Source: a virus (lineage: Duplodnaviria; Heunggongvirae; Uroviricota; Caudoviricetes). From it: a stretch of 5,505 nucleotides of DNA. Each line of letters opens with the position of its first letter. The stretch's first letter is position 1. The translations under genes were made by a program, and so were the position numbers. The DNA is taken from the IMG/VR virus record IMGVR_UViG_2684622619_000010. One strand, written 5' to 3'. This document shows, piece after piece, positions 111 through 322 of this stretch. The notes under the pieces are model-generated. The model made no database searches. It worked only from the letters and a program-made list of their open reading frames with translations, and was not told where the DNA came from.

Positions 111-114
111 AAGT

Positions 115-154
115 AAAAAACCCGTTTGTTAGCAGCAGGTGGGGTTTTGTGTTT
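115..154 (+). terminator. Weak hairpin with T-rich tail (possible low-efficiency intrinsic terminator or RNA structure)
   Basis: AAAACCC (117-123) pairs with GGGTTTT (142-148) around an 18-nt loop, followed by GTGTTT; begins 5 nt after the TAA at 108-110. Short AT-rich stem and long loop argue against a strong terminator. Confidence 0.2.
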
Positions 155-223
155 CCTGACTCCGGAAAAGTCAAAGGAGAAAGTGTGTTTGATTTTAGCA
201 AACTGATTCGGGAGATTTGAGTG

Positions 224-322
224 ATGGCTGAAAAATTATCTACCTGGAAGTTCATTCTTATCTGGCTGGTGTTTGTGATTATGGTCTCCGGTTATTTCAT
301 CGGTCAGATACGCTGGTGGTGA
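224..322 (+). CDS. Hypothetical 32-aa single-helix membrane peptide (MAEKLSTWKFILIWLVFVIMVSGYFIGQIRWW)
   Basis: ATG 224 preceded by GGAGA (211-215) at 8-nt spacing; same frame is closed just upstream (TGA 218-220), so the ORF is self-contained; hydrophobic core FILIWLVFVIMV with K upstream and RWW at the C-terminus; stop TGA 320-322 lies 1 nt before the Rz ATG. Confidence 0.35.
   Translation: MAEKLSTWKFILIWLVFVIMVSGYFIGQIRWW

Follow-up and report, generated by a model that had tools for sequence, protein, structure and literature searches.

The DNA studied here is a 5,505-nucleotide (nt) stretch of a tailed virus of the class Caudoviricetes (IMG/VR record IMGVR_UViG_2684622619_000010; hereafter the window, numbered from its first letter), which is 100% identical to lambdoid prophages of Escherichia coli O157:H7 and about 97% identical to the lysis region of the Shiga-toxin (Stx) phage H-19B. 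Between its lysozyme gene R and its spanin gene Rz lies a small open reading frame (ORF) at 224-322, coding for 32 amino acids (aa), and this ORF is almost certainly the downstream remnant of a conserved 45-codon coding gene that was cut short by a recent nonsense mutation. The intact gene belongs to the protein family PHROG 6632 and, together with a conserved structured leader, very probably forms a cassette of about 210 nt (115-322 in the window) that is mobile between the late-gene junctions of phages. Our preferred reading, to which we give a probability of roughly 0.5, is that of a mobile type I toxin-antitoxin-like cassette that is gated for late expression and has been mutationally damaged in the O157:H7 prophage. 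We use this label because the cassette joins a SymE/SymR-type geometry to a Hok-like payload.

A first-pass annotation of the window, made from the letters alone, had described the ORF from ATG224 to the stop codon at 320-322, the GGAGA at 211-215 with its 8-nt spacing from ATG224, the two tryptophans (WW) at the end and the 1-nt gap to the Rz start at ATG324, all of which are seen directly in the sequence (33 aa are counted if translation is taken from GTG221). It had also called the peptide self-contained and had placed it behind an untranslated leader of about 110 nt, and these two points must be revised. The frame is already open at GTG185, 5 nt past the Shine-Dalgarno (SD) sequence AAGGAG at 174-179, and given this start the true leader is only about 40 nt long. 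This ancestral translation start (174-187) corresponds to the annotated start of WP_000459345.1 and CAH23245.1, and GTG, TTG or ATG occupies the position in all cassettes. From GTG185 the frame reads VFDFSKLIREI (11 codons) and then runs into an in-frame TGA at 218-220, where relatives have CGA for arginine as the twelfth codon (C218T) of a 45-codon frame that spans 185-322. It is because the frame opens at GTG185 and codon 12 is TGA in place of the CGA of relatives that we regard the 32-aa ORF as a remnant.

Codon 12 is CGA and the 45-aa ORF is intact in strain OkiPb01711 and in phages CP-1639 and H-19B. Among the loci collected, CGA is found in the exact context in 95, whereas TGA is confined to the window and one identical genome copy (locus L001); M1300706002 and 6535 are strains with the TGA allele. 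Matches of at least 99% identity to the window were present in just 5 of 5,426 complete E. coli genomes. The nonsense mutation had been missed in the first-pass annotation, as had the consequent loss of the N-terminal 13 residues, which are the best conserved part of the protein and are missing from the window ORF. The window copy is probably a defective allele. To judge from the sequence, the full-length protein cannot be made from it, and at most an N-terminally truncated peptide of 32 or 33 aa could be produced from the internal SD and Met14.

The family assignment supports the same conclusion from the side of the protein. The 45-aa protein of the relatives matches PHROG 6632, a family whose function is not annotated, over profile positions 1-45 (E=6.4e-30), whereas the window ORF matches positions 14-45 only (E=5.6e-19) and comprises the short linker, the transmembrane (TM) helix and the QIRWW tail of the family protein. 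Distant homologues match PHROG 6632 as well, and no credible match to Pfam, NCBIfam or PADLOC was obtained for either close or distant members. Conservation of the ORF in 53 phage records goes far beyond chance, and a profile search of 1.84 billion representatives returned 66 cluster representatives at E<=1e-3, most of them 32-65 aa long, with the longest apparently being upstream over-extensions of the same ORF. Homologues with 40-100% identity occur in Escherichia, Salmonella, Yersinia, Pseudomonas and metagenomes; a scan of genome contigs used a narrow pattern and returned 5 loci, and this under-samples the taxonomic breadth.

Within the protein, residues S5, K6, E10, R12 and M14 are invariant and the amphipathic N-terminal stretch carries the conserved motif xDFSKLIRELRxMxEKL. 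The single hydrophobic helix noted in the first-pass annotation is borne out by a Kyte-Doolittle 19-residue maximum of 2.26 at residues 24-42 (45-aa numbering), the N-terminal 22 residues have a net charge of +2, and the C-terminus is a 5-residue tail, QIRWW. This charge distribution and hydropathy predict a tail-anchored topology with the N-terminus inside and the C-terminus outside.

The 45-aa protein is under purifying selection. The ratio of nonsynonymous to synonymous divergence (dN/dS) between lineages is 0.06-0.44 over codons 15-45, with synonymous sites near saturation. These values bear on the proposal that the region is non-coding, being either the 3' untranslated region (UTR) of R or a small RNA (sRNA) locus. 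A hairpin with a U-tract does lie downstream of R, and gene callers mark the ORF only sporadically; most records leave the gene uncalled. Yet amino-acid conservation persists despite saturated synonymous change, the frame is open in non-redundant cassettes of distinct lineages and contexts, and a PHROG family exists; the proposal is already contradicted and we consider it very improbable. The same dN/dS values and the PHROG 6632 match dispose of the possibility, named in the first-pass annotation as one that would refute its reading, that the ORF might be unconserved in relatives or a mere 3' UTR of the endolysin gene. What occupies the place where lambda has no gene is a real and conserved gene for a small membrane protein.

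The cassette is not tied to the lysis region. It lies between an R21-like lysozyme gene and Rz, next to a class II holin gene, in Stx phages of the H-19B type and also in Salmonella phage SPN3UB. In Salmonella phage SEN34 and Escherichia phage Rac-SA53 it is found at baseplate-gene junctions, in Pseudomonas phage YMC11/02/R656 in an island of small ORFs within the tail module, and in further phages 3' of the tape-measure gene or between the tail chaperone and the tape measure. In a marine contig it comes last in a co-oriented block, after PF27730, a conserved gene of the tail module that lies downstream of the capsid genes. Three loci (L016-L018) place it among ParE/RelB, HicAB and BrnA modules in a toxin-antitoxin island upstream of the terminase, and L016 has tandem or degenerate copies, including a degenerate tandem fragment. 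Wherever it lies in phage late modules the ORF shares the orientation of the flanking late genes, and the GC content of the cassette in the window is 0.42 against 0.54 for the window as a whole. The conservation that the first-pass annotation had proposed to look for among lambdoid prophages is therefore present for the ORF in phage relatives, but it is not confined to the R|Rz position.

Such contexts argue against a lysis accessory, whether antiholin-like, a pinholin, a modulator of a signal-anchor-release endolysin or a spanin partner, that would be made as dual-start isoforms of 45 and 32 aa. This idea, part of which (antiholin-like or spanin-associated) had been raised in the first-pass annotation, has the position between the R21-like lysozyme gene and Rz near a class II holin in its favor. 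The internal start signals are also suggestive in this respect. In the window these comprise GGAGA at 211-215, GTG221 and ATG224 (211-226), the last of which is Met14 of the 45-aa protein, and ATG14 is present in all 30 close cassettes, each with GGAG or GAGG 5-15 nt upstream. An internal start at Met14 is plausible in the close subfamily because the GAG of Glu10 and the preceding G make up this GGAG/GAGG. Two in-frame starts also characterize holins such as lambda S105/S107 and phage 21 S68/S71, and the cassette likewise has two candidate starts with their own SDs (GTG185 and ATG224) at a lysis-cassette site in lambdoid phages. Furthermore, unrelated small TM ORFs occupy the same junction elsewhere, for example ECs_5741 in prophage Sp15 of strain Sakai. 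Against this, the identical cassette is found well away from any lysis gene, in toxin-antitoxin islands as well as in modules for baseplate, tail and head, and most lineages are outside lysis cassettes. Rz is a neighbor only in the lambdoid contexts and is replaced elsewhere by baseplate, tape-measure, portal or other genes. The starts are 13 codons apart in the cassette as opposed to 2-3 in holins, distant family members have Ile or Leu in place of Met14, and a single TM helix is followed by the 5-residue QIRWW tail where a holin would have a charged hydrophilic C-terminal domain. We therefore consider a lysis accessory improbable, though less so than a non-coding region.

A conserved leader travels with the gene. 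Its first element, hairpin HP1 (117-148), is a GC hairpin with an A-run at 115-120 and a T-rich tail at 145-154, which is terminator-like on both strands and weakened in the window. The terminator scan matched 121-143 with a T tail and the fold of 117-148 has an energy of -10.6 kcal/mol, in agreement with the hairpin at 115-154 that the first-pass annotation had recognized. The second element, HP2, abuts the SD. In the window it is predicted to form part of an SD-sequestering helix on the plus strand (152-180), in which UUUCCU at 152-157 pairs with AGGAGA at 175-180 around GACU (158-161) and AGUC (169-172), with a 7-nt loop. A leader with both HP1 and HP2 precedes the ORF in 29 of 30 non-redundant cassettes (the exception is locus L153), although the stem sequences differ. 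Where the leader is present, HP1 lies 35-44 nt ahead of the start codon, a near-constant spacing, and is followed by TTTCY and then by HP2. Pairing is kept in HP2 stems as different as TGACT/AGTCA, CCTTG/CAAGG, CCTG/CAGG, CGTTA/TAACG, CCTTCTG/CAGAAGG and GGCAG/CTGCC. The SD is paired in the minimum-free-energy fold of 22 of the 30 cassettes, and the folds of whole leaders in relatives range from -25 to -41 kcal/mol. A consensus obtained with MAFFT and RNAalifold recovered only part of HP1 and missed HP2; recovery was partial because loop lengths vary, and the structural claim is thus based on the folds of single sequences. The suggestion that the hairpin belongs to a regulated small-protein locus agrees well with its presence ahead of the ORF in every context but one.

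In the window this leader has been altered along with the gene. Five of the approximately 12 substitutions that distinguish the window from close relatives over 466 nt fall inside HP1, at 121-141, and they are on the same allele as the nonsense mutation. Joint decay of a lock and its payload would be expected to give HP1 decay alongside the nonsense mutation, and this is a single observation. A rival reading is that the window locus is a dead remnant in which neither the 11-codon stub nor the 32-codon ORF functions and the cassette as a whole is decaying, and we consider the chances of this to be evenly balanced. The stop at codon 12 removes the invariant S5, K6, E10 and R12, the HP1 substitutions are clustered and leave only the weak fold given above, and the allele is limited to a handful of O157:H7 genomes. 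On the other hand, neither the internal SD nor the ATG has been altered and no other lesion is seen in the 32 codons that remain, with A34V as the sole non-synonymous change relative to relatives and the same GTC codon in CP-1639. A peptide consisting of the TM part could also still insert into the membrane. A dead remnant would concern the window copy only and is compatible with the toxin-antitoxin-like reading of the family.

Synonymous sites at the 5' end of the gene are constrained. Synonymous divergence was 0-0.36 in codons 2-14 and 0.33-0.98 in codons 15-45. In a set of 30 cassettes that are less than 93% identical and kin by descent, certain early codons use a single synonymous form almost without exception. 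Asp at codon 3 is GAT in 26 of 26 cases and never GAC. All 24 Phe codons at position 4 are TTT, against a split of about 50:50 in other Phe columns, and where Leu, Ile or Ser stands at codon 4 it is encoded by CTT, ATT or TCT. Ser at codon 5 is AGC throughout (28/28) and Ile at that codon is ATC. Glu at codon 10 is GAG in all 30, by contrast with Glu16 (21 GAA, 2 GAG), and Arg at codon 12 is CGA in 28 of 29, with mixed codons in the other Arg columns.

Read on the opposite strand, codons 3-6 give TTG(C/A)TA(A/G)N(A/C)T. This fits TGnTAnnnT, the consensus of an extended -10, and does so at the same register in 31 of 31 cassettes. We thus predict an antisense promoter within these codons (GAT TTT AGC AAA), with its extended -10, TGCTAAAAT, at 192-200 on the minus strand of the window. 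The motif keeps its register in leader-bearing cassettes that have other N-terminal residues at this point (KYTK, DSSK, EHSK and KITK), and the second cassette of L016 has TATACT in the same register but without the upstream TG. With a 17-bp spacer the CGA of codon 12 supplies TCG at the -35 position, and a start site about 7 nt past the -10 would fall on the start codon. The predicted transcript would be a cis-antisense RNA of about 73 nt (113-185, minus strand) that runs from near GTG185 across the SD and HP2 to HP1 and a U6 tract, as suggested by the -10 position, the A-run and the minus-strand fold. The A-tract 5' of HP1 (115-120 in the window) is found in all lineages and is a U-tract on the minus strand. 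We would put the existence of this RNA at level odds.

On the sense strand, no sigma-70 match was detected in the window or in locus L019. The only sigma-70-like match on that strand in the three loci scanned was in L016 (3126-3154, TTTACA-17-TATCAT, 10/12), about 270 nt upstream of HP1 and within chance expectation, and the conserved unit itself starts at HP1. The sole match of the promoter scan in the window, CTGACC-18-CATAAT on the minus strand (307->278), is at chance level and is not conserved in relatives, and it was discarded.

From these elements a mechanism can be proposed in which the payload would be a 45-aa tail-anchored inner-membrane protein with an amphipathic cytoplasmic N-terminus, one TM helix and an aromatic periplasmic end, QIRWW. 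As the cassette appears to have no convincing sense promoter of its own, its expression would depend on late transcription. Three locks might act on it. HP1, terminator-like on both strands and about 40 nt 5' of the start codon, would halt read-through; the anti-SD (UUUCY) would pair with the SD in the leader helix; and the antisense RNA of about 73 nt, initiated from the -10 in codons 3-6, would cover the ribosome-binding site and end at HP1 on the opposite strand. In a lysogen the peptide would be kept silent by these locks, whereas antiterminated late transcription would pass HP1 and out-titrate the antisense RNA, allowing the peptide to be made. The window copy, with its stop at codon 12 and five HP1 substitutions, is damaged. 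The neighboring ParE/RelB, HicAB and BrnA modules and the tandem or degenerate copies in L016 fit a type I reading. The small type I membrane toxin that the first-pass annotation had offered as one option stands as far as anatomy goes, in that a hydrophobic protein, a sequestered SD and a predicted antisense promoter and terminator are all in place, while its RNA and its toxicity belong with the predictions. For a toxin-like or otherwise late membrane function of the 45-aa protein our estimate falls somewhat short of even, and it is put forward tentatively.

Several points weigh against the toxin-antitoxin-like reading. The window folds are not significant against shuffled sequences (z -0.8 to -1.6), and G-U pairs do not separate the strands, since folding is better on the plus strand for cassettes of the E. 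coli type but on the minus strand for those of the Pseudomonas type; the asymmetry between G-U and C-A thus gives no verdict on which strand's hairpin is selected. A search of both strands against Rfam at a permissive E-value gave only noise. The antisense -35 is poor (TCGAAT or TCGCAA, 3/6), for which reason the promoter call depends on the extended -10. Bacteria generally tend toward A/T-rich codons close to the start, and this preference could account for GAT and TTT, although not for AGC, GAG and CGA. The 31 cassettes share descent and are therefore not 31 independent events. A strong sense-strand terminator in late operons, with up to three per operon in locus L200, requires antitermination or weak termination. 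Finally, classical type I toxins have their own promoter, and no convincing one was found for the cassette.

Some of these points fit better with an ordinary accessory gene of the moron type, co-transcribed with the late genes and without an antisense RNA. HP1 would then be a hitch-hiking terminator, an insulator or an mRNA-stabilizing hairpin, and codon conservation at the 5' end would reflect translation initiation and the internal start. The gene invariably shares the orientation of late genes and is located at gene junctions, its GC content is low, and a single chance-level match, in L016, is all that the three scanned loci yielded by way of a sense promoter. The trend toward A/T-rich codons after the start and the weak antisense -35 point in the same direction, and the internal SD ahead of Met14 in 30 of 30 cassettes accounts for the GAG of Glu10. 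What such a gene leaves unexplained is the constant AGC (or ATC) at codon 5 with its third-position C, the CGA in 28 of 29 cases at Arg12, the maintenance of the TGnTAnnnT register under changed residues, and the 35-44 nt spacing between hairpin and start together with the 5' A-tract in all lineages. We regard the plain moron as rather unlikely, and less likely than the gated toxin-antitoxin-like cassette.

Classical morons such as lambda bor and lom and HK97 gp15 reportedly have a promoter of their own on the upstream side and a terminator on the downstream side and are active in the prophage, and several morons are small membrane proteins used for exclusion. Like them, the cassette separates genes that are neighbors in related phages, deviates in base composition through a lower GC content (0.42 against 0.54) and occurs in late regions. 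Unlike them, it has its terminator-like hairpin upstream, no terminator downstream, a stop codon that abuts the next gene and no sense promoter beside it.

The closest parallel in layout is SymE-SymR of E. coli, in which the antisense promoter lies in the first codons with its start site by the start codon, and SymR, reportedly an RNA of about 77 nt, extends over the SD and the 5' UTR as far as a terminator upstream. This is the same geometry as the one predicted for the cassette. The two differ in that SymE, a soluble protein of 113 aa, cleaves RNA and has an SOS promoter of its own, whereas the cassette encodes a 45-aa membrane peptide, is mobile in phage late operons, has no convincing sense promoter, and has an RNA that is only predicted. 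With Hok/Sok-type toxins (Hok, Ldr, TisB, Zor and Ibs) the cassette shares a hydrophobic single-TM peptide of less than 60 aa, here a 45-aa protein with a positively charged N-terminus, an SD sequestered in a structured leader, a (predicted) cis-antisense RNA with a terminator hairpin, and an occurrence on mobile elements and in tandem or degenerate arrays. The cassette protein, however, has no sequence similarity to these toxins (no Pfam, NCBIfam or Rfam match) and possesses an amphipathic cytoplasmic N-domain, and there is neither a leader ORF of the mok kind nor a toxin promoter of its own.

Prophage RNAs offer a further analogy. STnc6030 of the Salmonella prophage BTP1 is antisense to a late (tailspike) gene region and acts in superinfection exclusion, as summarized in a review of phage sRNAs (PMC12197685). 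By analogy only, it is a prophage RNA antisense to late transcripts; it differs in locus and sequence and has no small membrane ORF coupled to it. That review names no sRNA at the R|Rz locus. The Pas sRNAs, described in a preprint by Zhu, Shabalina and Storz, map close to Q and the holin gene and not to R|Rz, and AgvB, AsxR and EcOnc03 were rejected as matching sRNAs as their sequences differ. Literature searches by the R|Rz location of a small ORF, by peptide sequence and by 'phrog_6632' turned up no description, and the peptide is absent from the supplements of the ribosome-profiling (Ribo-seq) paper on small genes in Sakai and of 'The Cryptic Bacterial Microproteome'.

The leader is not exclusive to PHROG 6632. 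The same hairpin and leader precede other families of small TM ORFs that end in ...IRWW, for example LFKYTPKYQVKVDGKMNSTDAGIVGRRLANAALILAAGFGSAALIWAIRWW and LRKYTKGKLTVSKQGIQFDGIFSPWLRFCVGLAIVLLALAPLIHAIRWW. Leader-bearing cassettes of other families were located in L016 (5640-6060 and 4203), L200 (3145, 4825 and 7119), L196 (2280 and 4029), L260 (5207 and 5418), L232 (2435) and L252 (12683). In the environmental contig L200 the order is TerS, cassette, TerL, cassette, P22-type portal, cassette, and in L196, also environmental, it is TerL, cassette, portal, cassette, ClpP protease. In YMC11/02/R656 (L007, 3171-3287) a second small TM ORF (MNAKDAGIVGKRLANAALILATGVAIASIIAAIGVVLG) lies directly 3' of the PHROG 6632 homologue. 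Because this MNAKDAGIVGKRLANAALILATGVAIASIIAAIGVVLG ORF resembles the C-terminal half of the second cassette family of L016, the two payload families are taken to co-occur.

These observations suggest, as a speculative extension that we consider doubtful, that PHROG 6632 is one branch of a larger, undescribed class of promoter-less mini-cassettes in the late-operon junctions of Enterobacterales, Pseudomonas and environmental phages, which would be self-gated type I toxin-antitoxin-like modules. Each would combine a hairpin that terminates in both directions with a leader that sequesters the SD, an antisense promoter in the first codons and a tail-anchored '...IRWW' peptide, with up to three cassettes per head operon. 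They might be tolerated because antiterminated late transcription would ignore the hairpin and because the WW-stop codons (UGGUGGUGA) would give an SD to the next gene, and their roles could be exclusion, lysis timing or addiction. In lambdoid contexts the WW-stop codons (TGGTGGTGA) lie just 5' of the ATG of the next gene and are SD-like, and in the window this ending (TGG TGG TGA, 314-322, with the SD-like GGTGGTGA) stands just ahead of the Rz ATG324. The IRWW-stop ending may thus double as the ribosome-binding site of the downstream gene, which would make the insertion harmless to its translation.

The surroundings of the cassette in the window follow the order of the identical O157:H7 locus. 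The 3' end of the R lysozyme gene occupies 1-25, with its TAA stop at 23-25 according to the RefSeq annotation of L001, and Rz, which is called 'lysis protein' in that annotation, starts at 324, leaving an R-to-Rz gap of 298 nt. The segment immediately after R (26-114) is AT-rich (GC content 0.42) and is common to prophages with different inserts at this junction. In Sakai Sp15 (L194, 19749-20740, minus strand) the PHROG 6632 cassette is absent from R|Rz, and the same post-R segment of about 90 nt is followed by an antirepressor gene (ant) and by the unrelated 48-aa TM ORF ECs_5741 mentioned above. In SPN3UB (L005, 2236-2440) an extra hydrophobic ORF of 35 aa (MSKRDVSALCFLMAAAVAISGNDGWGWLIFAGIIIL) lies directly after R and before the AT-rich segment. 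We regard the R|Rz junction as an insertion hot spot because the same post-R segment precedes different inserts.

Downstream come Rz, a 74-aa hypothetical gene, a DUF1441 gene, TerL, a gpW-like gene and the portal gene, and in Sakai Sp15 the DUF1441 gene carries a terminase small subunit annotation. Comparison with L001 showed that the two runs of 50 N in the window, at 467-516 and 725-774, stand for 229 nt and 233 nt, respectively, and are not length-preserving masks. Since the runs replace longer stretches, window coordinates past 466 are shifted relative to the genome. Rz, an i-spanin gene, spans 324-639, and the first run hides its middle together with the start of the embedded Rz1 lipoprotein (MKLCVLMLPLVVSACG...); the second covers the end of the 74-aa gene that begins at 636. 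This gene (WP_000736383.1, MKKLRVTVEPFQGTIPFRILQRGRVLVEG..., 636-724 and on under the mask) has a 4-nt overlap (ATGA) with the Rz stop and its annotation gives no family assignment. Its position 3' of Rz is the one that in lambda is occupied by bor, on the opposite strand. At 925-960, about 140 nt ahead of the TerS-like DUF1441 gene, there is a GC-rich tract, GGGGCGGGCGGCGCGG, that recalls the cohesive ends of lambda and may represent the prophage cos region.

If the toxin-antitoxin-like reading is true, this would be a new and widespread family of type I toxin-antitoxin-like modules that reside in phage late operons and not at stand-alone loci, and PHROG 6632 would gain a regulatory logic. 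The combination of hairpin, anti-SD helix and promoter in codons 3-6 would provide a searchable rule set for any phage genome, and a prophage antisense RNA would be added to the sRNA catalogue of enterohemorrhagic E. coli. The rare nonsense allele with its degraded hairpin would offer a natural comparison with intact alleles on whether loss of an RNA lock selects for loss of the peptide. The presence of the 45-aa gene would, if the prediction holds, account for the stretch between R and Rz that is recurrently left unannotated in Shiga-toxin phages. Even without the antisense RNA, it would still hold that a gene for a 45-aa membrane protein moves between unrelated late junctions with its leader intact, and this is useful for annotation.

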